Origin: [Enterobacter] lignolyticus SCF1
Lineage (GTDB): Bacteria > Pseudomonadota > Gammaproteobacteria > Enterobacterales > Enterobacteriaceae
DNA: 64,000 nucleotides
Direction: 5' to 3'
NCBI RefSeq assembly: GCF_000164865.1
Contig: NC_014618.1
Coordinates: forward strand, 661,753-725,752
Notes under the pieces: model-generated
Database searches by the model: none
The model's input: only the letters and a program-made list of their open reading frames with translations
Told to the model about the DNA's origin: nothing
Made by a program: the position numbers and the translations under genes
Shown: piece after piece, positions 35,933 to 64,000 of the stretch
Numbering within the stretch: the stretch's first letter is position 1
How the letters are laid out: each line of letters opens with the position of its first letter

Positions 35933-35979
35933 TGGTGGCCCCTGTTGGGTTTGAACCAACGACCAAGCGATTATGAGTC
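35933..35979 (-). repeat. 47-nt 3' fragment of a tRNA-Ile(CAU)/ileX-like gene (anticodon loop to CCA); att-type repeat of the integrative element
   Basis: The minus strand reads GACTCATAATCGCTTGGTCGTTGGTTCAAACCCAACAGGGGCCACCA. This matches the 3' two-thirds of tRNA-Ile2, as I remember ileX (GACTCATAATCGCTTGGTCGCTGGTTCAAGTCCAGCAGGGGCCACCA), with compensatory T-stem changes. No 5' acceptor strand (GGCCCCT) follows, so it is not a complete gene. Confidence 0.6.
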
Positions 35980-36103
35980 ATAAAATAGGCATGTTTCTAA
36001 TCGTTCGCTATTGACGCTTATTGTATTTTTAATTGTCTATAATCAATCGGTTATGATGTTGTTTTTGTTTCTGATTGGTTGTCTCGTCTCCCCATTGTAC
36101 TAT

Positions 36104-36153
36104 CGTTACCTGACCCATTACCTGACCCAAAATGGGCATCGGGTCAGGTAACG
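36104..36153. repeat. TTACCTGACCCA motif cluster (two direct and one inverted copy) between the att repeat and int
   Basis: CGTTACCTGACCCATTACCTGACCC...GGGTCAGGTAACG has 13-bp perfect inverted arms. The same 12-mer recurs at 41433-41444 and as a 7-copy tandem array at 63880-63963. Confidence 0.6.
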
Positions 36154-36176
36154 CTTATCCTTAGAAAGGTAACCTC

Positions 36177-37511
36177 ATGGCCGCTAATCTTACCGAGACT
36201 GCTATACGCGGATTGAAGACAAAAAGCACGTCGTACTACGTGTGGAACAATAGTGCTCAGCGTGGTACCGGCAGGCTTGGCGTTAAGGTTCAGCCTTCAG
36301 GCAGCAAAGTTTTTTATTTCCGTTACTACGTTGAGAAAGGGAAGAAAGAGAAATTCATTCAGTTGGGCATCTGGCCTGAGATGAAACTGGTGACGGCCAA
36401 TGAGCTGGCGAAAAAATATGGTGCCTGGCTTATTGAAGGAAAAGAACCTCAGCAAGAGCTTGAGCAACAGCGCCTGGCCGAGCAGCACATCATGCAGCTT
36501 CATCGCTCGCAGGGCTCGTTTAAAGAGCTGGTACATGGCTACGTTAACAAGATGAAGCTCGACAATAAGCGGACCTGGGCCGATGTTCTGAAGCGTCTTG
36601 AAAAAGAGTGCTATTCAGTCATTCCTCGTGAGACCAAAGCGAAAGATGTCACGCCCTTACAGATCAAAACGATCTTGTCAGCCATTATCCAGCGTGATGC
36701 GGTGGTCCATGCAAACCGAATTCGTTCCTATCTGATGGCGGCATTCAACTACGGGCTTAAAGCCGATAACGATCCGATGAATACTAGCGTGGGCATTACG
36801 TTTGGGCTTGAAGTTAATCCGGTATCGGCTATACCGAAGCAGTCCTCAGCGGAGAAAGTCGGTGATATATGGCTAACGCTGGAAGAACTACGAGTCGTCA
36901 TGGAGCAGTTCGCTAAGGCAACTAACGTTGGGCCTTTGATGCAGCATCTCATCCGATTCTGTGTTTATGCGGGCGGGCAGCGTCCATTCGAAATGATTGC
37001 CAGCCAGTGGAGCGCGATTGACTGGCAGCAGAAGACGTTGCTGGTTATTGCCGATGTATCGAAAAACAAGCGTGAACACCTGATCCCGCTGACTGAATCG
37101 GCGTTACAGGAATTAGCCTCAGTGAAAGAGTTGACTAAGGAAAGTAACAGTCCCTACATCTTCCCACTCTCGACTAACGGCGAGCGACCGGTGCGCACCG
37201 ACAGTCTGGCGCGTTCCATCATGTATTTCAGAGCTTTTAATCCTGAATTTAAAGTATTCACAGCGCGAGATTTACGTCGGACCTGTAAAACGTTAATGGG
37301 GGAAGCAGGGATCAGCAAAGAGATCCGCGACCGTATCCAGAATCACGCTTTGAATGACGTCAGCTCGAAACACTATGATCGTTATGATTACTTACCTGAA
37401 AAGCGCAGGGCGCTTGAGATCTGGGAAGATAGGGTCAACAACTATCAGCGACAGCAGGAAAATAACGTTGTGAACTTGTTTGGACGGAGGCAAGAGCTTG
37501 GCAAAATATGA
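36177..37511 (+). CDS. int: P4-type (tyrosine recombinase) integrase
   Basis: 444 aa. It has an N-terminal arm-binding domain and a C-terminal catalytic domain (R..HxxR..Y motifs: LRRTCKTLMGEAG, HALNDVSSKHYDRYDY). It is adjacent to the tRNA-fragment att repeat. Confidence 0.85.
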   Translation: MAANLTETAIRGLKTKSTSYYVWNNSAQRGTGRLGVKVQPSGSKVFYFRYYVEKGKKEKFIQLGIWPEMKLVTANELAKKYGAWLIEGKEPQQELEQQRLAEQHIMQLHRSQGSFKELVHGYVNKMKLDNKRTWADVLKRLEKECYSVIPRETKAKDVTPLQIKTILSAIIQRDAVVHANRIRSYLMAAFNYGLKADNDPMNTSVGITFGLEVNPVSAIPKQSSAEKVGDIWLTLEELRVVMEQFAKATNVGPLMQHLIRFCVYAGGQRPFEMIASQWSAIDWQQKTLLVIADVSKNKREHLIPLTESALQELASVKELTKESNSPYIFPLSTNGERPVRTDSLARSIMYFRAFNPEFKVFTARDLRRTCKTLMGEAGISKEIRDRIQNHALNDVSSKHYDRYDYLPEKRRALEIWEDRVNNYQRQQENNVVNLFGRRQELGKI

Positions 37512-38112
37512 GCTTAATTCAGCAGAAGAGCGGTATCAACCGGGCTCTGGAGACTTGGTGCTGGCTAATAAGTTAGGGATCACTGATGAAGAGGAAATGG
37601 AGGCGCTGGAATCTGGCTTGCTGCTGATGCTTTATGAACAGCTATTTATCGAAGGCCAGCCGCCAGCGGCGCTGGCTTTTGAGCATATCAGTGGCTGGCA
37701 TCGTCAATGGCTGGGGAATGTATACGACTGGGCGGGGAGATTGCGTAATGCCAACTTAACTAAGGACGGTTTCCAGTTTGCCGCTGCCGACAGAATTCCA
37801 CTGCTTCTGGATGGTTTCGAGAGGCAATTTCTCTCTAGGTCTGGTGAGCTGAAATCTCTGGCTCGTCCAGAGCTGGTTCGTTATCTGGCTGAATGTCATG
37901 TGGAATTTATTTTGATCCATCCATTCAGAGAAGGTAACGGGCGTCTGTCGCGGCTTCTTTGCGATGTGCTGGCTGTGTTGGCGGGGAAGGGCTTACTGGA
38001 CTATAGCCTGTGGGATGAGCACAAGGCATTTTACTTCAAGGCGATACAGGCAGGCGTATCAGGGAACTACAGCCCCATGATGCAACTGGTGAGCGATATA
38101 TTGCCAGATTAA
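37480..38112 (+). CDS. Fic/DOC-family protein (probable AMPylation or phosphocholination toxin)
   Basis: 210 aa with the canonical Fic active-site motif HPFREGNGRLSRLL. Its start overlaps the int 3' end by 32 nt. Confidence 0.7.
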   Translation: MDGGKSLAKYELNSAEERYQPGSGDLVLANKLGITDEEEMEALESGLLLMLYEQLFIEGQPPAALAFEHISGWHRQWLGNVYDWAGRLRNANLTKDGFQFAAADRIPLLLDGFERQFLSRSGELKSLARPELVRYLAECHVEFILIHPFREGNGRLSRLLCDVLAVLAGKGLLDYSLWDEHKAFYFKAIQAGVSGNYSPMMQLVSDILPD

Positions 38113-38255
38113 CGGGCGAGGCCAACGGCTTTCGCCTGTGCCTGATTTTTTTTGAGTTGCTGCTCAATCTTTTGCACAGAAGCACCGGTTTCTATCGCGG
38201 TCGAGCTGGCAACGGCGCGGTAGATTTGAGCTTTTGTGATAGGCGATTTTTTCAT
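38112..38255 (-). CDS. Small Lys-rich ORF (47 aa) convergent with and abutting the Fic gene
   Basis: MKKSPITKAQIYRAVASSTAIETGASVQKIEQQLKKNQAQAKAVGLAR. It is below the ORF-track size cut-off, and its stop abuts the Fic stop. Confidence 0.25.
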
Positions 38256-38407
38256 GTAGTCATGTCTCCTTGCGTTATTCTGGAAATTTTAGAGGGTAAT
38301 GAGAATGCTTGCAAGGTATAGACTGAGTTCCACTTTAAGTTATATAAATCAATATATAAAGCACGTATAGTGCAAGCGGCGAAGCATCACACAGGACGAC
38401 CAGTTAA

Positions 38408-39196
38408 ATGACCTCAAAGCAGCCCGACTTTTACCCTCTGTCTATGGCATCTGAAAAGTATCATATCATGCCTGACAATATACTGAATGACTGGCTTGAT
38501 CATAAGGTTCCACTCTACATTCGGTTGGATGCTTTGCCATGCCGGATTGTCCGATATATTGGCGGTGACAACTTTCTTTTGAAACATTGGAAACAGAAAA
38601 TAAAAAGCGGAGTAGATTATTATCAGCACGAAGCCATGCCGGAATTTAAGATAAGGCAGTTTTACCCAGAGAAAAATGCAGAAATAGAGGCCCAACTTTT
38701 GGAAGGGGACCTGGGATTATGCCGTTATACCTATAATGGGCTCGCACATGGTTACTGGCGGGTAAAGGCTACACCTGTAACCCGTTTTGCTGAAGGTCCT
38801 TATGTGCTGACAGATATGGATACTGTCAGAGAAAATAATAATATTGCAGGTGCGATTGCGGTATATGGTAAAGACAACTGGGATTATTTGATATTTCCGA
38901 GTGAAGTTTTCCGAGATAAATCAGAACTGTTTTTTAATGCAAATGAGTTGCCACTACAAAGCGGAGAAAACATGTCCGGTGAGAAAAAAGAAAAACAAAC
39001 CCGCATTTCAAGGCCAGAAAGAATAGCTCTGTATGTCATGCTGAAAGAGCATTATCTTGATGGCAATGGTGAGGTTAATTTTTCAAAAATGGCGGAAATG
39101 CTTACGGTGACTGCCGGAAAACATGGATTTAGTGACTCATTTAGTGATGACACCATCGCTAAGTGGATAAAACGTATTGAGAATGAAAATCAATAG
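38408..39196 (+). CDS. Hypothetical island protein (262 aa)
   Basis: Low-GC ORF after a long AT-rich spacer with no recognisable catalytic motif. The start could instead be one of the internal Met codons. Confidence 0.4.
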   Translation: MTSKQPDFYPLSMASEKYHIMPDNILNDWLDHKVPLYIRLDALPCRIVRYIGGDNFLLKHWKQKIKSGVDYYQHEAMPEFKIRQFYPEKNAEIEAQLLEGDLGLCRYTYNGLAHGYWRVKATPVTRFAEGPYVLTDMDTVRENNNIAGAIAVYGKDNWDYLIFPSEVFRDKSELFFNANELPLQSGENMSGEKKEKQTRISRPERIALYVMLKEHYLDGNGEVNFSKMAEMLTVTAGKHGFSDSFSDDTIAKWIKRIENENQ

Positions 39197-39409: not shown

Positions 39410-39646
39410 ATGAGTACAACATTTATTACACCTACTCCGGAAGAACGCCTGAAAGTCCTGCGTAATTACGGTGAGCAAAGCGAGCGTCTGGTTCGTGAAC
39501 GGGAGCGTCAGGTCATCACATCCATTTCTCGCTCTACCGCGTGGAAGCTTGAAAAGGCTGGCAAGTTTCCGCAACGTAAATCACTTGGGGTGAAGTCGTG
39601 TGGTTGGTTGCTTAGCGATCTTCTTTACTGGATAAACGAAAGGTAG
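39410..39646 (+). CDS. alpA: AlpA-family phage/island transcriptional regulator (excisionase-like)
   Basis: 78 aa with a typical AlpA HTH (ISRSTAWKLEKAGKFPQRKSLG...LLSDLLYWI). Confidence 0.8.
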   Translation: MSTTFITPTPEERLKVLRNYGEQSERLVRERERQVITSISRSTAWKLEKAGKFPQRKSLGVKSCGWLLSDLLYWINER

Positions 39647-39710
39647 TGGCTAAACATCTCCTAATTCAGCATTTATTTTTCTGACCCAAAATAGAGGATG
39701 GATAACATGC

Positions 39711-41228
39711 ATGTTTAAAAGAACTAAGAGTAAGCAGAATAGAGAACTTTGCTTGGAGTTTCAGACGCTCCCCACTTTTGTACAACGATTGATACGCTAT
39801 ATACATTATAAAACAGGTGCCGCAGTTGAGCTTATTTTAATAGTGTTGCTTGGTGTAATGGCGTATGCCTGTCAGGATAAATTTGATGTTCAGCTTAAAA
39901 ATGGGAAAACCTTTACATCGCTTTACCTCCTATTTTTAGCAAGATCAGGTAGCAGGAAATCAACCGTCTTCAGGTTATTGATGGAGGAAATCTATCGGCT
40001 GGAAAAAGAACTGAAAGATGATTTCCTGTTAAAGGAGAAAGTTTATGAGCAGAAATTCGCATCTTGGGAAGTAGAATTAAAAGAGTATAAAAAACAATAC
40101 AGTAAAGCTATTCGTCAGAAGAGCGGTGTAACTGAAGCACTTGAAGCACAGGAGGAATGCCATGCAAGAAAACCAGTTGCACCGATAAGAAAGTATCTTA
40201 CTAAAAACGATTCAACAAGTGAGGGACTTAGAAAGGTATTGGCGCAGGGCTCTCCGTCATTGATGCTCGGGTCTGATGAGGCCGGAGGGTTATTCGACGG
40301 TAATCTTTTCCGTAATACACCAGTACTCAACTCTCTTTGGGGAGAAGGGAAAATAGCAGACAGCAGGGCATCACGCGACAGCTACGATGTTGATGACGCA
40401 CGGCTAAGCATGTTGCTAATGATGCAACCTGGTTTGTTTGATTACTATCTTGGAAAACAGGGAAAAATTGCAAAAGACTCAGGATGGTTAGCTCGTTTAT
40501 TACCAATTGACATGGAACAAATACCTGAACTATGCATCATCCCTGATGATGCCTGTTCATGGTCTGATGAGCCAGAGCTTGAAGAATTTTTCTCTATTCT
40601 CACTAAGCATTTGCAAGATGGAATGAGACGTAGAGGAAAAAATGAAGAAAGAATCTGTATTACTTTATCTGAAGAGGCGAAAACGTTATGGGATAAACAA
40701 AGTCAACGAATTCGGGAACTAATGAAACTAGGAGAGGATCTGCACCACTACGATGATTTTGGTGCCCGATTTATGGAGCATGCTTCAAGAATTGCAGCAG
40801 TAATGCAAATGTTTATTACACCTGATTTACCAATAATTACTAAGGAGACATTAGTGTCAGCCTTTAAAATAACTGAATGGTGTCTTAATCATTTAATTGT
40901 AAAAATAGACGCTACCAGAAAGCCTAGTGACTCTGAAATATTGCTATTTTGGCTTGAGGAACATGTTATCAGTAATCAATCTTACGATTTCAGGAGACAT
41001 AGTATTCGTAGAGATGGTCCAAATTGTCTTAGGAACATCGAGCGCCTGATATCTGTTTTAAAAAAGCTTGAAAGTGAGAGGAAGGTTCAGTTATTCAAGG
41101 AGGGGGGCGTTGATTACGTGAAATTTATAGGTTCAGAAATGAAACCTGAAAATCTAGCAAATGTATTAAAAATACCTACACTTTCATCTGGATCAGTTGC
41201 TTTTAATAAGTTACCACGACCTGAATAA
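39711..41228 (+). CDS. DUF3987/YfjI-like protein (P4 alpha-like primase-helicase-associated family)
   Basis: 505 aa. Its position after alpA in a CP4-57-type backbone and the motif LFLARSGSRKST match the yfjI family. Confidence 0.6.
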   Translation: MFKRTKSKQNRELCLEFQTLPTFVQRLIRYIHYKTGAAVELILIVLLGVMAYACQDKFDVQLKNGKTFTSLYLLFLARSGSRKSTVFRLLMEEIYRLEKELKDDFLLKEKVYEQKFASWEVELKEYKKQYSKAIRQKSGVTEALEAQEECHARKPVAPIRKYLTKNDSTSEGLRKVLAQGSPSLMLGSDEAGGLFDGNLFRNTPVLNSLWGEGKIADSRASRDSYDVDDARLSMLLMMQPGLFDYYLGKQGKIAKDSGWLARLLPIDMEQIPELCIIPDDACSWSDEPELEEFFSILTKHLQDGMRRRGKNEERICITLSEEAKTLWDKQSQRIRELMKLGEDLHHYDDFGARFMEHASRIAAVMQMFITPDLPIITKETLVSAFKITEWCLNHLIVKIDATRKPSDSEILLFWLEEHVISNQSYDFRRHSIRRDGPNCLRNIERLISVLKKLESERKVQLFKEGGVDYVKFIGSEMKPENLANVLKIPTLSSGSVAFNKLPRPE

Positions 41229-41474
41229 CTTCAGAGTAACTGAGGTTATCCAGATTGATATTTTTTGTTCCTAAGGTCAGTAACGCTGCGGCTTTAGTTT
41301 AAATTATTAGGGAGGGCAATTAATGGGTTTTAACTGGTATATGTAATATACCTTCATTAATGTTCTAATCTTATATCTGTACATCCCCCTGCAGGGATTA
41401 TATCCAACATCACATGGGTAGCGTGAGGGCTACCCATTACCTAATGATTAATATTTACAGAATGAAGGATTATT

Positions 41475-42173
41475 ATGGAATCACAATATTTGCTTACCGA
41501 CGAAGAAATTGTCATGCTGACAACGGAAACCTCCAGAATGTATGACTCGCCCATTGATGGCTATATGCTTAACAAAGCACTTAACATGGTCTATAACAGC
41601 TTAGAACAGCATAAACGGATATTGGCTATTCGTACTGACCCGAGATTTGCAATGTCTCATGTACCGGGAGAACCTGATCTACCAATATGCTTCCAACAAG
41701 ATGATCCACAGGCAATCACTCGTTTCTTCGAGTCACTGAAAAGTCAGTTACGGGCGGATCACAAACGCTCTCGGAGAGCAGGAGATCCAACACTACCATC
41801 TTATGTGTGGTGCAGAGAACGCGATACCGGGGAGCACCCACATTATCACCTGATGTTGCTGTTTAATGCAGATGTGTATGGATACTTGGGCAATTACCAA
41901 GAACTCAATGCTAAAAATATGGCAACCCGAATACAGAAAGCCTGGTGCAGTGCTGTAGGGCTTGCTCACGAAGATTACGCAACATTAACTGAATTCCCAC
42001 CAAATGCTGTTTATAGGTTTAGCATCTTCGATGCTTTGGATCGTAACTCAGTCTACTGGGATTTCCTGATTCGACTGGCGTATCTGGCGAAAACCAGAAC
42101 AAAGGATGTTCACAGCGGTTACCGCAACTTTGGCACAAGCCAGTGTCCACGCTTAAGCGGATTAGCCTGCTAA
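41475..42173 (+). CDS. Inovirus Gp2-type/YfjJ-like protein
   Basis: 232 aa in the position of yfjJ in the CP4-57 gene order, with a conserved HPHYHLMLLFN-type motif. Confidence 0.55.
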   Translation: MESQYLLTDEEIVMLTTETSRMYDSPIDGYMLNKALNMVYNSLEQHKRILAIRTDPRFAMSHVPGEPDLPICFQQDDPQAITRFFESLKSQLRADHKRSRRAGDPTLPSYVWCRERDTGEHPHYHLMLLFNADVYGYLGNYQELNAKNMATRIQKAWCSAVGLAHEDYATLTEFPPNAVYRFSIFDALDRNSVYWDFLIRLAYLAKTRTKDVHSGYRNFGTSQCPRLSGLAC

Positions 42174-42506: not shown

Positions 42507-43145
42507 TTAAATAATCTGCGTTTCGGACGAAAAAATAGCATTCAGAACTTTGGTCGATTGCAATAACGTCTCTAGTGCAGTCCTCAGTGGAGAAAATACT
42601 TCATGTTCCACTGGAAATTCACCATACTCCTTCCAGCAATCAGTAAGTAATTTTGGATTAATGATAACAGGAAGAAAATAGTTACCTTTCCCCTTATCCA
42701 ATAGCCCTAACTCCCTAAGTTGCTCACGGTATTGCTGTTGAATAGTACTGGTATAGCTCGTAAGCTTTCTGGCCCCACCAAAAAATCCTGCATTCAATTT
42801 AAACTCAAAACCAAACTGCCCCTGCTCGGTTCCTGTACCAGTCAGAACGGCTAAAATATAATCATTTCCATCAGTAACTGTCGAACTGTTTTCAAACCAA
42901 TATTTGCAGTTAACGCCTTCAATGACCCAGGCTGGATGGCCTAGCCAGCAATAGTCCTGATGTTCATAATTTGCTTTACCTACCCAGTTGTTGTCTTTCA
43001 TAAATCGTTCAACACACTGATCAAAGCTTTTCCAGAAGGCAGGGCTTAAATGCTGTTCAAAATAAACAACAGCTTCGTTAAACATCTTTAGTTGCGAAAG
43101 AATCAGTATACCGGCCTGACGTTCCGCATCGCTGTGTGGATTCAT
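42507..43145 (-). CDS. Hypothetical protein (212 aa), last gene of a 3-gene cargo operon
   Basis: It lies 15 nt downstream of the nuclease-like gene on the same strand. Trp/Phe-rich, with no known motif. Confidence 0.4.
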   Translation of the reverse strand: MNPHSDAERQAGILILSQLKMFNEAVVYFEQHLSPAFWKSFDQCVERFMKDNNWVGKANYEHQDYCWLGHPAWVIEGVNCKYWFENSSTVTDGNDYILAVLTGTGTEQGQFGFEFKLNAGFFGGARKLTSYTSTIQQQYREQLRELGLLDKGKGNYFLPVIINPKLLTDCWKEYGEFPVEHEVFSPLRTALETLLQSTKVLNAIFSSETQII

Positions 43146-43160
43146 GTCTAATCCCTTAAA

Positions 43161-43949
43161 TTAAAATGTACGAACTCGATTAAGAAAGCAAAATGCGGCA
43201 TGGGCAGCCATTTGGCGTGAAGGCGAGTTTTCATTGGCAGAAATGAATTCTTTGTAATGTGCTTGCAACGAAGACACTAAAGCTGTGGCGAGATGTCGCC
43301 AAGAAATACAAGGAACATCCTCTGGTTTGAAATCTAAGCCACAGGTCAGCGGTTTTCCGCCACGAGGCGTTAAAAAGATAACGGCCCAAGGACGTGAGAT
43401 TGCGCGCAATTTAGCATCAGAACAGTATCGGGCGACTTGTTCTGGCTGTTCATACGCATCAATTTTCACCTCTATAAGCAGGAAAAAATTATCCGCATTG
43501 ATTTCTACATCAACACGATTGGTATTATCGCCAGTAGGATTAGTTTCAACCCGCACCCGACAATAGTGAAGGTAATCTTCAGGGATATCATTTCTGCTGT
43601 GCCGTATTGCCTGCAGGAATGCCTGTAAAGGTAGTCTCCCGAAACCATGAGTCCCCTCGGGATCAAGAAGCCAGGCAAGAACAGCTGTGTTACGAACTTC
43701 TTTACGCCCAAGACCTGCTACTTCCCAGGGATCAAAAGATAAAGATCGATGCTGAACAACTTTCAGTGGTTCAGAGAGCAGGCTGAAGAACTCAGTTAGC
43801 TGAGATGCATCAATATTTGTTTTTTTATCTTTTTCTCTGGCCCACTCCAGGTTTTTTGGCCATTGGTGAAAAAATTCCGGTAGCAACTCAGCCAGTGAAG
43901 AATTGTCATGTTCCATTAGATGCCCACTTAAAAAAGACGAATTGTTCAT
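43161..43949 (-). CDS. PD-(D/E)xK-like nuclease-fold protein (262 aa)
   Basis: The candidate motifs VDVEI...LLIEVKID (D-x13-E-V-K) follow WLLDPEGTHGFG. Its start overlaps the stop of the upstream 615-aa gene (ATGA). Confidence 0.45.
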   Translation of the reverse strand: MNNSSFLSGHLMEHDNSSLAELLPEFFHQWPKNLEWAREKDKKTNIDASQLTEFFSLLSEPLKVVQHRSLSFDPWEVAGLGRKEVRNTAVLAWLLDPEGTHGFGRLPLQAFLQAIRHSRNDIPEDYLHYCRVRVETNPTGDNTNRVDVEINADNFFLLIEVKIDAYEQPEQVARYCSDAKLRAISRPWAVIFLTPRGGKPLTCGLDFKPEDVPCISWRHLATALVSSLQAHYKEFISANENSPSRQMAAHAAFCFLNRVRTF

Positions 43950-45793: not shown

Positions 45794-45828
45794 GAAAATA
45801 CCTCTGCCATATTCATCACCAAAATCTA

Positions 45829-48744: not shown

Positions 48745-48802
48745 CAGTGTGTAGTGCCTTTTATTATTTTGTAGGCCCGGAGTTGGTCGGGCCGGATGAT
48801 TT

Positions 48803-51594: not shown

Positions 51595-51640
51595 AGTTCT
51601 TCCTGTTGTTTTTCTTCGTCACAAGGGATGACGTAATGAG

Positions 51641-54815: not shown

Positions 54816-56689
54816 CCAGTCGCATTGGTAGCCCTGATACACAGGCAGATATTGATGTTCGTATTTGTCTGGATAGCTCGCCACCACGTTCATTTGTCAT
54901 GGTGGCTGGTGCTGGTTCAGGTAAAACAACATCTCTTATTAAAGCCTTGGCACATTTGGCTGATACCCGTGGTTCTGCTTTACGTCGTGCCGGGCAAAAA
55001 ATATCCTGTATAACGTATACAGAAGTAGCTGTTGGTGAGATTGCCGCTGACGTTGGTAACTCACAGTTATTTCATATTTCAACCATTCATAGCTTTCTTT
55101 GGTCGATCATCCGACCTTTTCATTTAGATATCGCAAAGTGGGTCGTAGCGCGAATACATGAAAAAATAGCTGAAAAGCAAGCCCATTATGATAAGCCCAG
55201 AACACAAGCTAAAACAAAATCTCGTCTTGAAGATGAAATTGCCTATCTCTCTGCTCAACTTGAGTGCATTGATGATATTGATAAATTTATCTACGGGACA
55301 GGAAGTAACTATGCTAAGGGTATTCTAGGACACGATGATATTCTTAAACTCGTCCCTGCTTGTGTTGAGGCTCATCCACTTTTGAGAAGGATTGTAGCCA
55401 AGCGCTTTCCATTTGTTTTTGTCGATGAAAGTCAGGATACCGATCCTGATGTGATCTCTGCGCTTCGAACTATTGCTAATGACAATCCTGACATGTGCAT
55501 AGGATTTTTTGGTGATCCGATGCAGAAAATCTATATGAGCGGAGCTGGTGCTATTCCGTTAAGTGATGGGTGGGCTGAAATTACAAAACCAGAGAATTTC
55601 AGATGTCCGACGTCTGTACTTGGTGTTATCAATTCGATTCGAGCTTCTGGGGATGGCCTCCAACAAATTCGTGGCCGAAAAACTATCGTAGATGGTGTTG
55701 AACAGACTGTATTAGGCACAGTGAATCTTTTCATCTTGCCTTCAAATGTGGAACGAAGTGCCTATCTCACATCTGTCAGACGTTACCTTGCAAATGAAAC
55801 TAGCGATGAACAATGGCTAAGTGATACACGCGAAGGTGATGTTCGTCTGCTTGTTTTGGTGCATCGTATGGCAGCTAATCGACTGGGATTCCCTAATTTA
55901 TTTTCTGCCCTTACTGATAAAGCACCGATGAGCTTGAGTGAAGGGGTGAACGATGGGTCAGCTTGGCCGCTTCGCCCATTTGTCCAGCATATCCTTCCAA
56001 TTTTTGCGGCGGCTCAGGCAAACGATCAATTTCAGATTATGTCGATTATGCGTAACGAGTGCCCAAAGCTGGAGCCATCACGACTGCATGGTCAAGCTAT
56101 GGTGGCAGTCTTAAATGAACTACAACAAGGCATCAATGGCCTGCTTGCACTGTTGGAAGATGGATCGCAAGCAACAGTTCGGGATATATTGCGACACGTT
56201 AGAGACTGTGAACTGCTACGTCTTGACGATCGTTTTGATAATCATTTAAGTGATGAACCTGTGAACGATGGTAATGATGACTTCGAAAATGTTCAGAACT
56301 ATCTAAGATGCAATGCCCATGAACTTTGGGCGTACCGACGCTACCTTTCAGAGGAATCACCTTTTGCCACTCATCATGGTGTAAAAGGTGCACAGTTCGA
56401 GCGAGTGTTGGTTGTTATCGATGATGAAGAGGCTCGCTTCAGCCAATATTCGTATGGAAAATATTTTCAATACATTCCCCTATCCGACAATGATCTAGCC
56501 AATCTTGAAGAGGGGAGAGAGTCAGTACTCGACCGTACTCGTCGTCTTTTTTATGTATGTTGCTCCCGTGCACTGAAAGACTTGGCTGTTGTCATCTTTG
56601 TTCCAGATGTCGCCGTCGCTCAAGCGGCAATTATTGCGCAAAATTTATTCCCGGCATCGGTAATTCTAAGGGCGCACGATCTGGTCTAG
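54812..56689 (+). CDS. UvrD/PcrA-like SF1 helicase (Gabija GajB-like partner)
   Basis: 625 aa with a Walker A (VAGAGSGKTTSL), motif II (VFVDESQDT) and C-terminal helicase motifs (YRRYLSEESPFATHHGVKGAQFERVLVV). Its start overlaps the OLD stop (ATGA). Confidence 0.65.
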   Translation: MTSRIGSPDTQADIDVRICLDSSPPRSFVMVAGAGSGKTTSLIKALAHLADTRGSALRRAGQKISCITYTEVAVGEIAADVGNSQLFHISTIHSFLWSIIRPFHLDIAKWVVARIHEKIAEKQAHYDKPRTQAKTKSRLEDEIAYLSAQLECIDDIDKFIYGTGSNYAKGILGHDDILKLVPACVEAHPLLRRIVAKRFPFVFVDESQDTDPDVISALRTIANDNPDMCIGFFGDPMQKIYMSGAGAIPLSDGWAEITKPENFRCPTSVLGVINSIRASGDGLQQIRGRKTIVDGVEQTVLGTVNLFILPSNVERSAYLTSVRRYLANETSDEQWLSDTREGDVRLLVLVHRMAANRLGFPNLFSALTDKAPMSLSEGVNDGSAWPLRPFVQHILPIFAAAQANDQFQIMSIMRNECPKLEPSRLHGQAMVAVLNELQQGINGLLALLEDGSQATVRDILRHVRDCELLRLDDRFDNHLSDEPVNDGNDDFENVQNYLRCNAHELWAYRRYLSEESPFATHHGVKGAQFERVLVVIDDEEARFSQYSYGKYFQYIPLSDNDLANLEEGRESVLDRTRRLFYVCCSRALKDLAVVIFVPDVAVAQAAIIAQNLFPASVILRAHDLV

Positions 56690-56877
56690 CATGAATTTTA
56701 TACGGACAATAATGGGCAACAACTACTACACGCATGACCGGATATAGTGCTGGTTTTGTTAAAAGACACCTGCATTCTAAAATTTTTCAGACATATATCA
56801 TTTTCCTGAACGCAACATCATTACGGCGAATTCCTCAAGGATTCGCCTTTTTTGTTTTATTTGTCTCAGGAGATGTC

Positions 56878-57741
56878 ATGAGAAATCGGGAAGGCCTGCA
56901 GCCGCTGCAGAACTCACTTTCTGGCTTGCCGCAATGGGTTTCTGAACGCATTTTGCACCAGGTAAGCCAGTTAACCAACTATGTGCCAGTGATCGGTATT
57001 ATGGGCAAAACCGGAGTAGGTAAATCATCCCTTTGCAATGCTCTTTTTGCCGATAAGGTGTCACCTGTCAGCGATGTTACTGCCTGCACTCGCGACCCCT
57101 TATGCTTTCGCCTGCAGGTGGGCGAACATGCTATGACTATCGTCGATTTACCTGGTGTCGGAGAAAGTGGTGCACGTGATATTGAATACGCTGCACTTTA
57201 CCGCAAGCAGCTTCCCCGACTCGACCTGATACTGTGGCTGATTAAGGCCGATGACCGAGCGCTGGCGGTGGATGAGCACTTTTATCATCAGGTGATTGGT
57301 GAAGCATACCGGCATAAGGTGTTGTTTGTTATCAGCCAGTCCGACAAGGTTGAACCCGCCTGCGGTGGTGAAAAGCTGTCCACAGAGCAGAAACAAAATA
57401 TCGGCCGCAAAATCTGTCTGCTGCATGAGTTGTTCCAACCTGTAAACCCTGTCTGTGCGGTGTCGATACGTTTGCAGTGGGGGCTGCGGGTGATGACTGA
57501 ACGGATGATTCGGTGCCTGCCACGGGAGGCCAGTAGTCCGGTGGCGGTACAGCTTAGTGCTCCACTTCGTACCGATGCCGTTAATAAAAAAGCACGTGAC
57601 GATTTTGGTGAAACGGTCGGCTCGGTACTGGACACAGTAAGTTCCATGCCCCTGATACCGGCCCCGGTTCGGACAATTATCCAGGCTGTACGCGACATCG
57701 TAGTATCAGTCGCTCGTGCAGTCTGGAATTTCTTCTTCTGA
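56878..57741 (+). CDS. YfjP/YkfA-family small GTPase (prophage CP4-type)
   Basis: 287 aa from the ATG at 56878 (CAGGAG upstream). It has a G1 P-loop (GIMGKTGVGKSSLCNALF) and a G3 (DLPGVGE), in the position of yfjP in the CP4-57 order. Confidence 0.7.
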   Translation: MRNREGLQPLQNSLSGLPQWVSERILHQVSQLTNYVPVIGIMGKTGVGKSSLCNALFADKVSPVSDVTACTRDPLCFRLQVGEHAMTIVDLPGVGESGARDIEYAALYRKQLPRLDLILWLIKADDRALAVDEHFYHQVIGEAYRHKVLFVISQSDKVEPACGGEKLSTEQKQNIGRKICLLHELFQPVNPVCAVSIRLQWGLRVMTERMIRCLPREASSPVAVQLSAPLRTDAVNKKARDDFGETVGSVLDTVSSMPLIPAPVRTIIQAVRDIVVSVARAVWNFFF

Positions 57742-57771
57742 AAATTAACCCTTCTAACCTGTAGTTTCCTG

Positions 57772-57806
57772 AGCCCTGCCGCCATTTTGCGGCAGGGCTT
57801 TTTTGC
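57772..57806 (+). terminator. Rho-independent terminator after the yfjP-like gene
   Basis: AGCCCTGCCGC-cattttg-CGGCAGGGCT followed by TTTTTTGCTTTT. Confidence 0.6.
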
Positions 57807-57836
57807 TTTTATTTATCCATCATGAGGAGTCTGCTT

Positions 57837-58664
57837 ATGACCCGTCTGGCTTCGCGCTTTGGCGCAGCAAACCTTATTCGTCGTGATCGTCCGCTAACCC
57901 GTGAAGAGCTGTATCTCGTGGTACCCAGTGTGTTCAGTGAGGATAAACACGAGTCACGTAGTGAAAAATACACCTACATACCCACCATATCCCTGCTGGA
58001 CAGTCTGCAGCGCGAAGGCTTTCAGCCCTTTTTTGCCTGTCAGACCCGCGTGCGTGACCCAGGGCGTCGTGAGCATACAAAGCATATGCTGCGCCTGCGT
58101 CGGGAGGGGCAAATTACCGGCAAACAGGTGCCGGAAATTATTCTGCTCAACTCCCATGATGGCACCAGCTCATATCAGATGCTGCCGGGGTTATTTCGTG
58201 CGGTGTGTCAGAACGGCCTTGTTTGCGGTGAGTCGTTTGGCGAGGTGCGGGTGCCGCACAAAGGAGATGTGGTGAGTCAGGTGATTGAGGGAGCGTATGA
58301 AGTGCTGGGGATTTTTGACCGTGTGGAAGAGAAGCTGGATGCCATGCAGTCGCTGATGCTGCCGCCACCTGCACAACAGGCTCTGGCACAGGCTGCACTG
58401 ACGTACCGTTTCGGTGAGGACCACCAGCCGGTGACAGCGCCTCAGATACTCTCCCCACGCCGCTGGCAGGATGAGAGTAATGATCTGTGGACCACCTACC
58501 AGCGTATTCAGGAAAACCTGATTAAAGGCGGGCTCACTGGTCGAAGTACAAAAGGTGGGCGAACACATACCCGCGCCGTGCGTGGTATCGACGGCGATGT
58601 GAAGCTTAACCGGGCACTGTGGGTGATGGCGGAAGCCATGCTCAGTGGTTTCCGGCCTGCGTGA
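57837..58664 (+). CDS. YfjQ/DUF932-family protein
   Basis: The sequence is near-identical along its length to E. coli YfjQ as I remember it (MTRLASRFGAANLIRRDRPLTREEL...RVRDPGRREHTKHMLRLRREGQITGKQVPEIILLNSHDGTSSYQ). The ATG at 57837 has GAGGAG upstream. Confidence 0.8.
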   Translation: MTRLASRFGAANLIRRDRPLTREELYLVVPSVFSEDKHESRSEKYTYIPTISLLDSLQREGFQPFFACQTRVRDPGRREHTKHMLRLRREGQITGKQVPEIILLNSHDGTSSYQMLPGLFRAVCQNGLVCGESFGEVRVPHKGDVVSQVIEGAYEVLGIFDRVEEKLDAMQSLMLPPPAQQALAQAALTYRFGEDHQPVTAPQILSPRRWQDESNDLWTTYQRIQENLIKGGLTGRSTKGGRTHTRAVRGIDGDVKLNRALWVMAEAMLSGFRPA

Positions 58665-58890
58665 GTTCACATTTTACCTCTGGCATGGTTATTAAAATGT
58701 GAATAAATGACACACCCTGTCATTTCGGGTGCACAGAACTTGCCGGTTAAATCATCAGAAATCCACGCAGGTCTGATAATCACTGGCTTCATGCGCTTCC
58801 CAAATTAATTCCCGTCGTGGACATATCCTGTCACCCCTCTCCTTTAGAATCTTATTTCTTTCAGTCAGTTAACAATGCGGAGGAACTTCC

Positions 58891-59601
58891 ATGCCACTGA
58901 CAGAGCGCCGCTACGACAGGCTGGCGGTCAGGCTGTCGCTGATTATCAGCCGTCTTGTGGCGGGTGAAACGTTAGAGATGCAAAAACTGGCAACCGAGTT
59001 TGATGTGTCGGTCCGTACCCTGTACCGGGATTTTCGCGAACGACTGATGTATCTGGACCTCGAGTGTCATCAGGGATGCTATCGCCTGCGGACCGGTGCA
59101 GGTCCGCAGGGTGAACTGGATGTGCTGACTTTTGCATACCGGGCCGGGCTGGCCGATATCTTTCCGGGGCTGGACCGGCGTCTGGCGGGCGCACTGCTGG
59201 CATCGGATGGAACCCCTTGCCTGGTGTGGCAGTCACCACAGCCGATAACGGCCACCAGCCCGCTGGTATTTTATCGGCTGGTCAGCGCCATCACCGGCAG
59301 CCAACGTGTATTGCTGCTCGCGGATGGTGAACGTTGTGACGGACTGGCTCCGTACCGTCTGATATTTCTCGACGGCTGCTGGTACCTCACCGGTGAACTT
59401 AACGGGCATATAACCGTGCATCCTCTGGCGACCATCCATGCAGTGACAATCCTGAACACCACTTTTACCCCGCGAAAACGTCTCAGCCAGTTAACCACAC
59501 AGGCGGGCTTTATCCGGGCCCTTCCGCACTTCAGCTGTATTCGCGAAGTCCTGTCACTGGGGCCTTCTGATGAAGAGCCTGGCAGAACTTTGGCTCAATG
59601 A
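58891..59601 (+). CDS. YfjR/YafY-type HTH-WYL transcriptional regulator
   Basis: 236 aa with an N-terminal DeoR-like HTH (LEMQKLATEFDVSVRTLYRDF) and a WYL-like C-terminal domain, in the position of yfjR. Confidence 0.7.
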   Translation: MPLTERRYDRLAVRLSLIISRLVAGETLEMQKLATEFDVSVRTLYRDFRERLMYLDLECHQGCYRLRTGAGPQGELDVLTFAYRAGLADIFPGLDRRLAGALLASDGTPCLVWQSPQPITATSPLVFYRLVSAITGSQRVLLLADGERCDGLAPYRLIFLDGCWYLTGELNGHITVHPLATIHAVTILNTTFTPRKRLSQLTTQAGFIRALPHFSCIREVLSLGPSDEEPGRTLAQ

Positions 59602-59887: not shown

Positions 59888-60757
59888 ATGAAAATATTAT
59901 TTATTGCCCTGACACTTTTTTTAAGCTTTTACGTAAGCGCCTCAACGATGGAAGATGCCGCCAAATGCACAGATAATTGCCCTTATCCAAGGGAACTGTA
60001 CAAGTCTGACAAAAATTTTGCGGCAGAGCTAAACGATAACTTGAAATCTATTGGTATTAAGAATCCACTTTCTCCTGAGGGCTTACTGAACGGTGTTGAA
60101 ACACCAGTAGAACGTTATGGAGATGGTAAAAATTTTATACTGGTAGGTAGTATATGTGGAAGTGATTGTTTCACCAGTTTCAAATTTCTTTTTGATTTAA
60201 ATACACAGAAAATGAAATCAGCCTTGATTGAAAATGGCAAAGTAACTCTTATGGGTAACCCAACTCAAGATATAGTTAATTTTCTGCTTAAAGACGAAAA
60301 TGTGGTTATTCCTAAAGTGCAAACTGCTACTGCAGAGCGCAATGATATTCCTGCTAACACTATTTGGTCATTCAAGGATCCAAATGGGCGTGTGCTGTGG
60401 GATGTATGCGGTGGAAAACAAAGTTCATGTACTATAGTTTTAGCCGCTACTAACAGAGTGGCAGTTGTTAACCGCAAGTCTACCAACGGTTGTGCGCTGG
60501 GCGATTTCTATGTCGTAGCAAAACCAGAAAAGACTTGGAATCAATACGATACAGGAACTTGCAGTAGCAATGCCTACTTCAGTCAAGGCACGATGAATAA
60601 CGGTCAATATCGTACTGTTGATGTCCGTCTTAACGGTGAACTCGTTAAGCGATTTCCTGTAGAGTATTGGTCGTTGGTTAAATCATTTTCTGGTGAAAAT
60701 CGGCCAAAATGGAAAGAAAAAACCACAGGGAAACAATTTTTTGAAACTAATGAGTGA
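59888..60757 (+). CDS. Secreted Cys-rich hypothetical protein (289 aa, low GC)
   Basis: It has a signal peptide (MKILFIALTLFLSFYVSAST) and multiple paired Cys, with no recognisable domain. It lies in the CP4-57 yfjS/yfjT slot. Confidence 0.45.
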   Translation: MKILFIALTLFLSFYVSASTMEDAAKCTDNCPYPRELYKSDKNFAAELNDNLKSIGIKNPLSPEGLLNGVETPVERYGDGKNFILVGSICGSDCFTSFKFLFDLNTQKMKSALIENGKVTLMGNPTQDIVNFLLKDENVVIPKVQTATAERNDIPANTIWSFKDPNGRVLWDVCGGKQSSCTIVLAATNRVAVVNRKSTNGCALGDFYVVAKPEKTWNQYDTGTCSSNAYFSQGTMNNGQYRTVDVRLNGELVKRFPVEYWSLVKSFSGENRPKWKEKTTGKQFFETNE

Positions 60758-61031: not shown

Positions 61032-61490
61032 ATGACGACACAAACGCAATGCGAATTGATGTCCGCTAATGAACCTCAATTTGACCTTACTTCAACACCA
61101 GTACCTGACGAACAGCGTCTCGATTTCTGGCCGCTGTACTTTGGCGATATCCCGCAATGGATATCGCTGGAACCCCGTATTTTCGCCTGGATGGAGCGCT
61201 TTTGTGATGAGTACAGCGGTGGTATCTGGTCCTTTTACACGCTCAGCAGCGGCGGCGCGTTTATGGCCCCTGATGCTGACGGGGACGATAAATGGCATCT
61301 GTTCAACGGCATGAGCGGCAATGGTGCGGAAATGAGCGCGGAAGCCGCAGGTATTGCTGTCTGCCTGATCGAATACAGCCATCACGCTTGTCGCACCGAA
61401 TGCGATGCCATGACGGAGCACTATTACCGCCTGCGGGATTACGCCCTGCAGCACCCTGAATCCAGCGCCATTCTGCGCATTATTGATTAA
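61032..61490 (+). CDS. Antirestriction protein (YfjX/KlcA-ArdB-like family)
   Basis: 152 aa with conserved WPLYFGDIPQWISLEPRIFAWMERFCDEYSGGIWSFYTLSSGGAFMAPD, typical of CP4-type antirestriction proteins. Confidence 0.75.
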   Translation: MTTQTQCELMSANEPQFDLTSTPVPDEQRLDFWPLYFGDIPQWISLEPRIFAWMERFCDEYSGGIWSFYTLSSGGAFMAPDADGDDKWHLFNGMSGNGAEMSAEAAGIAVCLIEYSHHACRTECDAMTEHYYRLRDYALQHPESSAILRIID

Positions 61491-61498
61491 GGATACTC

Positions 61499-61981
61499 AT
61501 GATGGAACAGTCACTTATCCCACAGGCTCCGGCACTTCCATTGACCGCACAGCGCACGGTAAAACGCGCTTTAACGCTGCTTGACCGACACCTGCGAGAA
61601 ACAGGTGTAGCATTCACCTCCACTCAGGCTGCCCGTGACTGGCTGAAACTGAAAATGGCGGGACTGGAGCGCGAAGAGTTTATGGTGCTGTATCTGAACC
61701 AGCAGAACCAGTTGATTGCCCATGAAATCCTGTTTGCCGGTTCTATTAGCAGTACCGAGGTACATCCTCGTGAGGTGGTCAAACGCGCCCTGTACTTCAA
61801 TGCGGCAGCAGTGATACTGGCGCATAACCACCCTTCCGGCGACACCACGCCCAGCCAGGCAGATAAGACCATTACGCAGCGTCTGGTGCAGGCGCTCCAG
61901 CTCATTGATATCCGTGTGCCTGACCACCTTATCGTCGGTGGCTCGCAGATATTGTCGTTCGCCGAACATGGTCTGCTCTGA
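61499..61981 (+). CDS. RadC-like JAB/MPN-domain protein (YfjY family)
   Basis: 160 aa with the JAMM motif HNHPSGDTTPSQAD. Confidence 0.8.
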   Translation: MMEQSLIPQAPALPLTAQRTVKRALTLLDRHLRETGVAFTSTQAARDWLKLKMAGLEREEFMVLYLNQQNQLIAHEILFAGSISSTEVHPREVVKRALYFNAAAVILAHNHPSGDTTPSQADKTITQRLVQALQLIDIRVPDHLIVGGSQILSFAEHGLL

Positions 61982-61989
61982 GGTATTAC

Positions 61990-62211
61990 ATGAAAATTAT
62001 CAGTAAACGCCGGGCGATGACGATTTACCGCCAGTATCCGGCCTCCCGCATTTTTCGATACTGCACCGGCAGATACCAGTGGCACGGCAGTGTCTGTCAT
62101 TACACCGGTCTGGCCGTTCCTGACATTCCCGGCGTGCTGGCTGTATACGCTGAACGCCGCCAGGACCGCGACGGACCTTATGCCTGTCTGATGAGTATCA
62201 CTCTGAACTGA
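61990..62211 (+). CDS. DUF987-family small protein (YpjJ/YeeT-like)
   Basis: 73 aa in the conserved position between radC-like and the cbeA antitoxin. Its sequence (RYQWHGSVCHYTGL) fits the family. Confidence 0.6.
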   Translation: MKIISKRRAMTIYRQYPASRIFRYCTGRYQWHGSVCHYTGLAVPDIPGVLAVYAERRQDRDGPYACLMSITLN

Positions 62212-62229
62212 CAATAAAGGTGGTTATAA

Positions 62230-62547
62230 ATGAGCAACATTACATGGGGCCTGCAGCGGGATACCACGCCGCGTCTGGGAGCCCGTCTGGTACAGGAGGG
62301 CAACCAACTGCATTATCTGGCTGACCGGGCCAGTATCACCGGTAAATTCAGTGACGCCGAATGCCGGAAGCTGGATGAAACATTCCCGCACTTTATCAGC
62401 CAGATGGAATCGATGCTGACCACTGGTGAAATGAATCCTCGCCATGCCCACTGTGTCACCCTGTACCACAACGGTTTTACCTGCGAAGCCGATACCCTTG
62501 GCAGTTGCGGCTACGTATACATCGCTGTTTACCCCATCCAACGATAA
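62230..62547 (+). CDS. cbeA: Type IV antitoxin CbeA/YfjZ/YeeU family
   Basis: 105 aa, near-identical to E. coli YfjZ/YeeU as I remember them ([45 protein letters not shown]...[10 protein letters not shown]). Confidence 0.85.
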
Positions 62548-62567
62548 CGAATTTCACGAGAGAAAGC

Positions 62568-62909
62568 ATGAAAACTCTACCTGCTATAATTTCGCGGGCG
62601 GCGAAGCCCTGTCTGTCGCCCGTTGCAGTCTGGCAAATGCTACTTACACGCCTGCTGGAAAAACACTATGGTCTGACCCTGAACGATACGCCGTTCTGTG
62701 ATGAAACCGTTATACAGGAACATATCGATGCCGGTATTACGCTGGCTGATGCCGTTAATTTTCTGGTGGAAAAATACGGACTGGTTCGTATCGACAGGAA
62801 TGGATTTATCTGGCAGGAACAATCACCTTATCTTCGGGCCGTTGATATTCTGCGAGCGCGGCAGGCAACTGGCTTATTGCGACAAAGCCGTAACAACGCA
62901 ATACGTTGA
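62568..62909 (+). CDS. cbtA: Type IV toxin CbtA/YpjF/YeeV family (cytoskeleton-targeting)
   Basis: 113 aa from the ATG at 62568 ([43 protein letters not shown]...). This matches the YpjF/YeeV toxins. The upstream extension in the ORF track overlaps cbeA and is unlikely. Confidence 0.85.
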
Positions 62910-62988
62910 ATATTGCGTACAACCTTCCCGAATTACATTCCTGATCTTTCTCCCTTGTTTACTTATTGCATAATGCGCCTGCCATTAC

Positions 62989-63858
62989 TTGGTGGGCGCG
63001 TTTGCTTTTTACGGACAAACTATCATGCAAACAGAAGCTGAAGTATTAACCGAACATAGCGAGCTAATTTACTCGACCAGTATTGAACGCATAGTGACAG
63101 GCCGCGATACAGCACTAAAAAAGATCGAGCAACTCATCCAACAACTTGATGCCATCTCACGGTTAACCTCAGAAATTGGCGGGGGTACAGCGCAAGACTG
63201 GGCGATGAAGGCCGGGCACCGTTACGATAGCTGGATGACCGAAAAGGTAGATAAAGCGCTGCCTGCCGTCACCCGCAATATTGACTGTAGTATCTGGCGA
63301 GACTTGATGTTGAAGTCTGGCATGATGGCCTTGATGGATGCTCAGGCCCGTGACCAGTGGCATAAGAACCTGGAGGAGGGGGAGCTACCCGCCATTAGCG
63401 AGGCGAATATCCTCAGTACTTTTGAGCAGCTACATCTGAACAAAATGGATGTATTTGAGCGTGGCATTATCAATGTCTTCAAAGGGCTGTCGTGGGATTA
63501 CAAAACCAATAGTCCCTGCAGCTTTGGTAAAAAGATCATCGTCAACAATTTGGTGACGCATAACCGCTGGGGATTTAGTTTGAATTGGGGTTGGCGTAGG
63601 GATCAACTGGCGGATCTGGAGCGAATGCTATTTCTGCTGGATGGTAAACCGATACCCGAAAACCGTGGCGATGTTACTACACGGTTGATGGAGCATATTC
63701 GGGACAACCCTTCGAAGGATGTCTACGAAGATGATTTTTTCAGTATCCGTTATTTTCAGAAAGGAACCGCGCACATCACTTTTAAGCGGTACGATCTGAC
63801 AGAAAAGATGAATGATATTGTGGCGAAGCACTATCCGGGGATGCTGGCAGCGAGATGA
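62989..63858 (+). CDS. DUF4942-like protein conserved downstream of cbtA in CP4-type islands
   Basis: About 277-289 aa. The start is ambiguous: 62989, or 63025 at MQTEAEV. The position and size match the yeeW/ykfB-type genes. Confidence 0.45.
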   Translation: MVGAFAFYGQTIMQTEAEVLTEHSELIYSTSIERIVTGRDTALKKIEQLIQQLDAISRLTSEIGGGTAQDWAMKAGHRYDSWMTEKVDKALPAVTRNIDCSIWRDLMLKSGMMALMDAQARDQWHKNLEEGELPAISEANILSTFEQLHLNKMDVFERGIINVFKGLSWDYKTNSPCSFGKKIIVNNLVTHNRWGFSLNWGWRRDQLADLERMLFLLDGKPIPENRGDVTTRLMEHIRDNPSKDVYEDDFFSIRYFQKGTAHITFKRYDLTEKMNDIVAKHYPGMLAAR

Positions 63859-63879
63859 AGAGGGCAGGGAGGCAATTCC

Positions 63880-63963
63880 TTACCTGACCCATTACCTAAC
63901 CCATTACCTAACCCATTACCTAACCCATTACCTAACCCATTACCTGACCCATTACCTGACCCA
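63880..63963. repeat. Seven tandem copies of the 12-bp unit TTACCTRACCCA
   Basis: The array is TTACCTGACCCA x1, TTACCTAACCCA x4, TTACCTGACCCA x2, directly after the DUF4942 gene. It is the same motif as next to int (36106-36151) and at 41433-41444. Confidence 0.9.
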
Positions 63964-64000
63964 AATCGCATCCAAAGAAAAAGGAGTCAGACGATTTCTC

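Follow-up and report, generated by a model that had tools for sequence, protein, structure and literature searches.

The tRNA loci of Escherichia coli are hotspots of mobile islands carrying defence genes (18 of the hotspots), and ileX and ileY are documented insertion sites. The island analysed here occupies the right part of a 64,000-nt stretch of the genome of [Enterobacter] lignolyticus SCF1 (NC_014618.1, positions 661,753 to 725,752; hereafter the window) and is very probably a complete or nearly complete integrative island of the CP4-57/CP4-6 type, about 28.09 kb long, lodged in a minus-strand tRNA-Ile2(CAU) gene. tRNA-borne defence islands, CP4-type backbones and the ileX/ileY sites are all already documented; the locus adds one further tRNA-associated mobile island stacking anti-phage systems and leaves current understanding unchanged. 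One of its boundaries is fixed to the exact base, the other with a margin of a few bases, and the arm-type sites expected to bind its integrase are identified.

CP4-57 of E. coli K-12 has the gene order int, alpA, yfjI, yfjJ, a cargo slot, yfjP, yfjQ and yfjR, followed further on by genes for antirestriction, RadC, DUF987 and a CbeA/CbtA-type pair. The island in the window shares this order and likewise holds defence genes in the slot between yfjJ and yfjP, which is filled by AbpAB and RnlAB in K-12 and by other cargo here. An earlier inspection of the bare sequence (the initial annotation) had taken the locus to reproduce the CP4-57 backbone. Pfam agrees with the gene order it gave from int to DUF4942, and the right arm is 82-96% identical to CP4-57 proteins (YfjR, 54%), but Int, AlpA, YfjI and YfjJ in the left arm reach only 23-42% and the orientation is that of CP4-6. 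Judged from these bimodal identities, the backbone belongs to the CP4-57 type, but its module for integration and replication is only distantly related. CP4-57 differs further in its target, ssrA, in an int gene that adjoins the intact target, and in having neither Fic nor DUF4942.

The geometry is closer to that of CP4-6, inserted at thrW. This element is bounded by a 47-nt direct repeat corresponding to tRNA positions 30-76, with int at the far end beside the displaced fragment, and its intact tRNA adjoins the toxin-antitoxin/RadC/antirestriction end, as predicted for the island in the window. Unlike the latter, CP4-6 uses a Thr tRNA, is ridden with insertion sequences (IS) and carries metabolic cargo; the identity to its integrase IntF is 27% over 203 aa.

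Phage P4 provides the model for the attachment site. It has an arm-binding Int, 12-bp arm repeats (one inverted and two direct beside int) and a core in the 3' part of a tRNA, all of which are found here; two direct arm copies stand on the other side of the core in P4 attP and seven in the island. The P4 arms are of the ATGCCCCCAAT type, its core has 20 bp against 47 nt here, and the two integrases are 20% identical. This attP architecture, the presence of an AlpA-family regulator and the partial PHROG helicase/primase matches of the DUF3987 protein might suggest a P4-like phage satellite, or a phage-inducible chromosomal island, packaged by a helper phage. We regard this as highly improbable, as no psu, sid, delta, alpha primase, cos-related or capsid-related family was found in the 25 open reading frames (ORFs) scanned, the integrases are so distant, and a 28-kb element with a CP4-57 right arm contrasts with the 11.6 kb of P4 with its psu, sid and delta.

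The island also resembles the tmRNA-associated defence islands of Pseudomonas in its core of integrase, AlpA, RadC and Gp2-like protein, in its defence-rich cargo and in having no transfer genes of its own. These islands differ in genus, in their tmRNA target with a 14-bp repeat and in gene order, and their transfer by jumbo-phage transduction has been shown (PNAS 2025, PMC12595487).

Attachment site and left junction

The left end of the island is marked by two adjoining segments:

35933..35979, minus strand: attL core, displaced 3' 47 nt of tRNA-Ile2(CAU), CCA end directed outward from the island
35850..35932, minus strand: native chromosomal flank downstream of tRNA-Ile2, with a rho-independent terminator hairpin at 35886-35905

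Read on the plus strand, the core is the reverse complement of tRNA-Ile2(CAU) positions 30-76, the exact 3' 47 nt of the gene from the CTCATAA anticodon stem-loop to the CCA end, and has the sequence TGGTGGCCCCTGTTGGGTTTGAACCAACGACCAAGCGATTATGAGTC. It is identical at 42 of 47 positions to ileY of E. coli K-12 and at 43 of 47 to the tRNA of locus L046, which has an ileX-type acceptor with G67. From ileY the core departs at a compensated T-stem pair (50:64, C-G to U-A), at two bases of the T loop and at one of the acceptor. Exact copies of the 47-mer number 102 in GTDB species-representative genomes (one per species), spread over 101 stretches, and 93 of them lie within intact tRNA(CAU) genes, of Klebsiella pneumoniae, Kluyvera, Kosakonia, Edwardsiella, Serratia and many more Enterobacterales. 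This rules out a chance match and upholds the origin from a tRNA-Ile2(CAU) 3' end proposed by the initial annotation. About 90 Enterobacterales species have the 47-mer in their native tRNA-Ile2 allele. The compensatory T-stem substitutions pointed out earlier are therefore real when the fragment is compared with E. coli, but they are no trait of the island; we rejected their reading as an island-specific adaptation, given the same allele in 93 intact genes.

The assignment to tRNA-Ile2, the lysidine-dependent CAU tRNA, follows from the CAU anticodon and from the alignment to K-12 ileY, the sequence being like ileX/ileY and not like tRNA-Met. Full-length genes with the 47-mer are annotated as tRNA-Ile in K-12 and in E. 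coli ET776, host of a near-twin of the island; ARAGORN, which uses the anticodon alone, calls them Met(cat). Neither ARAGORN nor Rfam finds an intact tRNA anywhere in the 64-kb window, and no second 47-nt core or internal att site is present in it, including 35980-64000, with up to three mismatches allowed. The tRNA is on the minus strand and its CCA end points leftward, out of the low-GC DNA, so this piece represents the displaced 3' half, and the gene as rebuilt should stand to the right of the island. GC content falls from 0.579 (1-35932) to 0.462 (35933-64000), the sharp drop noticed at first sight being located at 35933.

Comparison with island-free genomes, which the initial annotation had recommended, gave the left junction. 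Left of the fragment, 83 nt align with the flanks of tRNA-Ile2 genes that carry no island, in Klebsiella pneumoniae (L068) and Pluralibacter gergoviae (L091). This homology ends at about 35846-35849, at the start of an IS3-family fragment, and no locus matches the left flank past 87 nt. On the other side, the homology of empty sites and intact tRNA genes to the window stops exactly at GAGTC, where the island DNA (ATAAAAT...) begins, which places the left junction at 35979/35980.

Arm-type sites and predicted right end

Both ends of the island carry short repeats:

36106..36151, no strand assigned: integrase-proximal arm-type sites, with TTACCTGACCC(A) twice in direct and once in inverted orientation, directly upstream of int
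63880..63963, plus strand: integrase-distal arm-type sites, with the 12-bp TTACCTRACCCA repeated seven times in tandem
63964..64000, minus strand: island-borne spacer and first half of the hairpin that would terminate the rebuilt tRNA; same sequence in IMG/VR locus L031, with near-identity in L054, L077, L102 and ET776

The arm motif TTACCTRACCC, with the 12-bp form TTACCTRACCCA, is found ten times in the window and nowhere but at the two ends of the island, against 0.01 expected by chance; no other significant repeat family occurs in the window. Five of the seven distal copies are of the A variant TTACCTAACCCA. The motif placement and its likeness to P4 predict that these sites are bound by Int. 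The offset between core and arm is 173 nt, the same as in L079, with a matching layout in L075, L129 and L138. In all, the arm layout and the offset recur at the tRNA fragments of four other species, Atlantibacter subterraneus, Enterobacter sp. Bisph1, Kluyvera ascorbata and Escherichia sp. ESNIH1. For the opposite end, 13 intact tRNA-Ile2 genes of other species have in front of them the arm repeats and a terminator-containing spacer of 57 nt. The attachment site is in this way backed by P4-style arm repeats at both ends and by four left and 13 right ends of the same family elsewhere, and in Atlantibacter subterraneus both island ends are found on one contig, 35.2 kb apart. A short-read contig of the source, L001, breaks off inside the distal arm array.

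The right end lies just outside the window and is predicted from relatives. L031 agrees exactly with the last 61 nt of the window, and L054, L077 and L102 almost exactly; in these four loci the 47-mer begins 21 nt after the equivalent of the window end, preceded by ATCTAACTCCTTGTTTTRTTT. The window is hence predicted to continue with ATCTAACTCCTTGTTTTRTTT and then with the far 47-mer at about 64022-64068, which would end the island at about 64068 and give it a length of about 28,089 bp. The initial annotation had the element run past the window: the relatives agree, but by a short distance of about 68 nt. If the intact tRNA follows, the sequence from 64001 on should read ATCTAACTCCTTGTTTT(A/G)TT(T/C), then TGGTGGCCCCTGTTGGGTTTGAACCAACGACCAAGCGATTATGAGTC, then GCCTGCTCTAACCACTGAGCTAAGGGGCC, with tRNA-Ile2 at about 64022-64097. 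One tRNA 3' copy is present in the window (35933-35979), and the relatives give strong, if indirect, support to the predicted second copy just past 64 kb.

The near-twin island of E. coli ET776

The closest relative sits in ileY of E. coli ET776, between ygaQ and ypjC (NZ_CP100909.1, 1,128,457-1,161,964, about 33.5 kb), and is also present in ET896. It has the same tRNA-Ile2 site, arm sites and terminator, with Int and Fic each 96% identical. The cargo is shared as well, at 86-99% identity (JukA-fusion 90%, PD-(D/E)XK nuclease 94%, HsdR and HsdM 98%, GajA 99%, GajB 97%). Within this common frame the identity drops to 27% for YfjI and 35% for YfjJ (39711-42173 versus 29213-31431 of L151), which points to an exchange of the replication module, and the 40% identity of HsdS against 98% for HsdM and HsdR points to an exchange of specificity domains. 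ET776 alone has additional WYL, FxLYD and AIDA-repeat genes, and it carries two distal arm copies where the window has seven.

Against the empty ileY of K-12 the flanks of the ET776 island are identical. The copy on the int side is the native 3' half of E. coli ileY, and in the intact ileY an E. coli 5' half is continued by the island 47-mer, of the same allele as in the window. This comparison shows a precise insertion with replacement of the tRNA 3' half. The two ET776 tRNA copies differ solely 3' of tRNA position 49, and strand exchange would accordingly fall within positions 30-49. From the ET776 junction polymorphisms we take this to be the anticodon-loop class of tRNA sublocation. The island swaps the 3' half of a tRNA that reads an essential codon; in hosts with another allele, such as E. 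coli, the resident tRNA-Ile2 becomes a chimera. Rebuilt ileY genes of E. coli hosts (L151 1958-2033; L046 325-400) are such chimeras with a U6.G67 wobble in the acceptor, and in ET776 the T arm is foreign as well.

Backbone genes and proposed mechanism

The backbone ORFs flank the cargo slot as follows:

36177..37511, plus strand: tyrosine integrase, 444 aa (Pfam Arm-DNA-bind_3, Phage_int_M, Phage_integrase)
37480..38112, likely start 37498, plus strand: Fic-family AMP-transferase (Pfam Fic; PADLOC candidate PDC-S04, E = 4e-91)
38408..39196, plus strand: hypothetical protein, 262 aa, no match in Pfam, PADLOC, NCBIfam or PHROGs
39410..39646, plus strand: AlpA-family regulator or excisionase (Pfam Phage_AlpA, E = 3.7e-14)
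39711..41228, plus strand: YfjI-like DUF3987 protein, helicase/primase-like replication protein (Pfam, E = 3.9e-68; PHROG DNA helicase and primase families)
41475..42173, plus strand: YfjJ/YagK-family protein, inovirus Gp2-like (Pfam YagK_YfjJ_C, E = 7.6e-51)
56734..59601, plus strand: YfjP-like GTPase, YfjQ-like DUF932 protein and YfjR/YafY-like helix-turn-helix/WYL regulator (Pfam)
59888..60757, plus strand: hypothetical secreted protein, 289 aa, with an N-terminal hydrophobic signal-like segment; only PHROG 5248 matches
61032..63858, plus strand: antirestriction protein, RadC, DUF987 protein, CbeA antitoxin, CbtA toxin and DUF4942 protein (Pfam)

The window therefore holds the backbone components of the CP4-57/CP4-6 type, namely an arm-binding tyrosine integrase, the module of AlpA, DUF3987 and YfjJ/YagK proteins and the conserved right arm. 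All backbone ORFs are open, comprising int, fic, alpA, the DUF3987 gene, the yfjJ-like gene and the right arm from yfjP to DUF4942. The integrase is 96% identical to WP_022631405.1 of ET776 and belongs to a family with 85-97% identity across dozens of loci; its identity to IntA of CP4-57 is 23%. An int-fic homologue of 79% nucleotide identity is found in Enterobacteriaceae bacterium RIT691 (L137, 2886-6206) about 1.4 kb downstream of an intact tRNA-Ile2 gene, in the orientation opposite to the family norm.

The fic gene overlaps the end of int, in a translationally coupled arrangement, and its product has the canonical HPFREGNGRLSR motif. Convergent with it, a minus-strand ORF of 48 aa (38113-38259) without Pfam match encodes S-T-A-I-E-T, which is like the inhibitory S-x-x-x-E-G of class I Fic antitoxins, and a small homologous ORF is annotated at the equivalent place in ET776. 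The DUF3987 protein and the YfjJ-like protein are 27% and 34% identical, respectively, to K-12 YfjI and YfjJ. At the start of the right arm the identities to K-12 are 82% for YfjP, 93% for YfjQ and 54% for YfjR. The 289-aa protein occupies a second variable slot, where K-12 has ypjK-yfjW and ET776 an AIDA-repeat autotransporter. The distal module is 84-96% identical to YfjX, YfjY, YpjJ, YfjZ and YpjF of K-12, and the Pfam families Antirestrict, CbeA and CbtA bear out the antirestriction gene and toxin-antitoxin pair that the initial annotation had placed at this end.

We propose that the arm-binding tyrosine integrase would assemble on the arm sites and recombine the tRNA 3' half carried by the island (the attP core) with the chromosomal gene, strand exchange taking place inside tRNA positions 30-49, which comprise the anticodon stem-loop and the variable region. 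The island would supply a new T arm, the 3' strand of the acceptor and its own terminator, while the native 3' half is displaced to the integrase side. By family likeness AlpA probably drives integrase expression and excision, as in CP4-57, and the DUF3987 and Gp2-like proteins, from their family membership and the PHROG helicase/primase matches, probably replicate the excised circle. The cargo would protect host and island against phages, and antirestriction, RadC and CbtA/CbeA may help the island to establish itself and to be retained. We detected neither transfer nor packaging genes in the island, which would consequently depend on a helper.

Completeness and mobility

Several observations weigh against a complete and mobile island. 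The second att copy and the intact tRNA fall outside the window and are predicted only from relatives. The seven-copy distal arm array is atypical, related ends having two copies in 50 cases and three to four in three cases. Residues 363-368 of Int (37263-37280) read A-R-D-L-R-R where P4 Int and IntA have the catalytic H-x-x-R; the arginine of R-D-L-R is conserved in all relatives examined, including a homologue of 58% identity, and this conservation across the family argues for integrase function. What we propose on excision, replication and transfer derives from sequence comparison, and for excision and integration by the encoded Int the comparison is that of the ET776 insertion with the empty ileY of K-12. 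Finally, among the 12 IMG/VR loci read that have this right-end spacer, the 47-mer runs into another element in 11, ten of them with TGCTGCCA-type repeats.

This last point bears on the possibility that the island is a member of a tandem array, in which a second element, such as a prophage at the same tRNA, would come after the far 47-mer and the intact tRNA would lie tens of kb further on. The tRNA 5' half follows in just one of the 12 IMG/VR loci, as such an array would have it. IMG/VR, however, is selected for viral DNA and hence biased to such arrays, whereas all 13 arm-repeat right ends in species-representative genomes run into an intact tRNA, and we hold the tandem arrangement to be quite unlikely here. 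In the IMG/VR loci L004, L005, L023, L031, L045 and L154-L158 a different element, bearing TGCTGCCA-type repeats, comes after the 47-mer, which indicates that the same tRNA is occupied there in tandem by an island and probably a prophage.

The expanded arm array could also mark a fixed, non-mobile remnant that kept its att sites and genes and lost excision. An IS3-family fragment adjoins the native flank 84 nt from attL, and the K-12 relatives are annotated as cryptic prophages, although CP4-57 reportedly still excises. The island itself contains no IS and no pseudogene, its backbone ORFs are full length when compared with the ET776 and K-12 homologues, and the spacing between the core and the integrase-proximal arm sites is identical to that in other species, so that we judge a cryptic remnant unlikely. 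We privilege the view of a complete or nearly complete integrative island. It is conceivable, and we put it forward only tentatively, that the change from two to seven arm copies shifts the balance between integration and excision.

Defence cargo

Between the yfjJ-like gene and yfjP the cargo forms a seven-gene block on the minus strand followed by a pair of genes on the plus strand:

42507..45793, minus strand: cargo 1, three-gene operon for a JukA(YaaW)-domain fusion of 615 aa, a PD-(D/E)XK nuclease of 262 aa and a 212-aa protein
45829..52213, minus strand: cargo 2, type IC restriction-modification system (Pfam; PADLOC REase_I, Specificity_I)
45829-48810, minus strand: hsdR (Pfam EcoR124_C, E = 9.7e-63; PDB EcoR124I/II structures, E about 1e-176)
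48803-49987, minus strand: hsdS, two-domain, 394 aa
49987-51594, minus strand: hsdM (Pfam)
51641-52213, minus strand: half-size S-like ORF, 190 aa, preceding hsdM
52494..56689, plus strand: cargo 3, Gabija, with gajA (52494-54815) and gajB (54812-56689) overlapping by 4 nt

The initial annotation had counted three defence modules, a type IC restriction-modification system, a Gabija-like pair and an operon held to be novel. The first is type IC by its EcoR124-family HsdR, closest to EcoR124I, together with HsdM and a two-domain HsdS. The second can be named more firmly: GajA (PADLOC, E = 5.9e-260; Pfam AAA_15 and OLD-like TOPRIM) and GajB (E = 2.1e-234; UvrD helicase) are both full length, and by these matches the pair is bona fide Gabija.

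The third module is indeed a three-gene cargo operon, situated directly downstream of hsdR on the same strand, but not a novel family. The 615-aa protein matches JukA of PADLOC over residues 9-228 (E = 6.9e-47) and has a Q/E-rich, helical C-terminal half, and its ET776 homologue is named YaaW family by PGAP. The PD-(D/E)XK protein corresponds to PADLOC candidate PDC-S26 and Pfam PDDEXK_4. No PADLOC model for JukB matches the two proteins that neighbour the JukA fusion. Searches of Pfam (E up to 1), PDB, PHROGs and NCBIfam returned nothing useful for the 212-aa protein, for the C-terminal half of the fusion or for the 262-aa and 289-aa hypothetical proteins of the backbone. The Juk preprint describes jukA neighbourhoods with PD-(D/E)XK nucleases and JukA fused to a coiled-coil domain; from domain content, the operon is a variant of this already described JukA/YaaW family. 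With its JukA fusion, nuclease effector and 212-aa protein it may possibly be a functional Juk-type system, perhaps cooperating with the co-oriented type IC system, a proposal we make with reserve. Its position beside type IC and Gabija offers a natural setting for testing a Juk variant. The full block of three modules is rare: 2 of 5,426 E. coli genomes cover at least 80% of it and 47 hold some part.

Neighbourhood left of the island

Fragments of IS3-family transposases (126 aa and 99 aa, minus strand) lie in 35062-35849, the last ending about 84 nt from the tRNA fragment, and IS256-family fragments are found at 28.3-29.4 kb (28300-29400). The 28.2-35.9 kb segment bracketed by these remnants contains rlaP-rtcB-band7/rtcR. 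It was considered as an older att-bounded island in tandem and rejected, since it has no core fragment and 35850-35932 belongs to a different type of native tRNA-Ile2 locus, that of Klebsiella and Pluralibacter. The idea had been prompted by the DUF1889 gene at 27863-28162, which adjoins a tRNA-Ile2 copy in Kluyvera, Atlantibacter, Scandinavium, Pseudocitrobacter and Citrobacter; here it is followed by an IS256 fragment, which suggests a rearranged or lost second tRNA-Ile2 locus.

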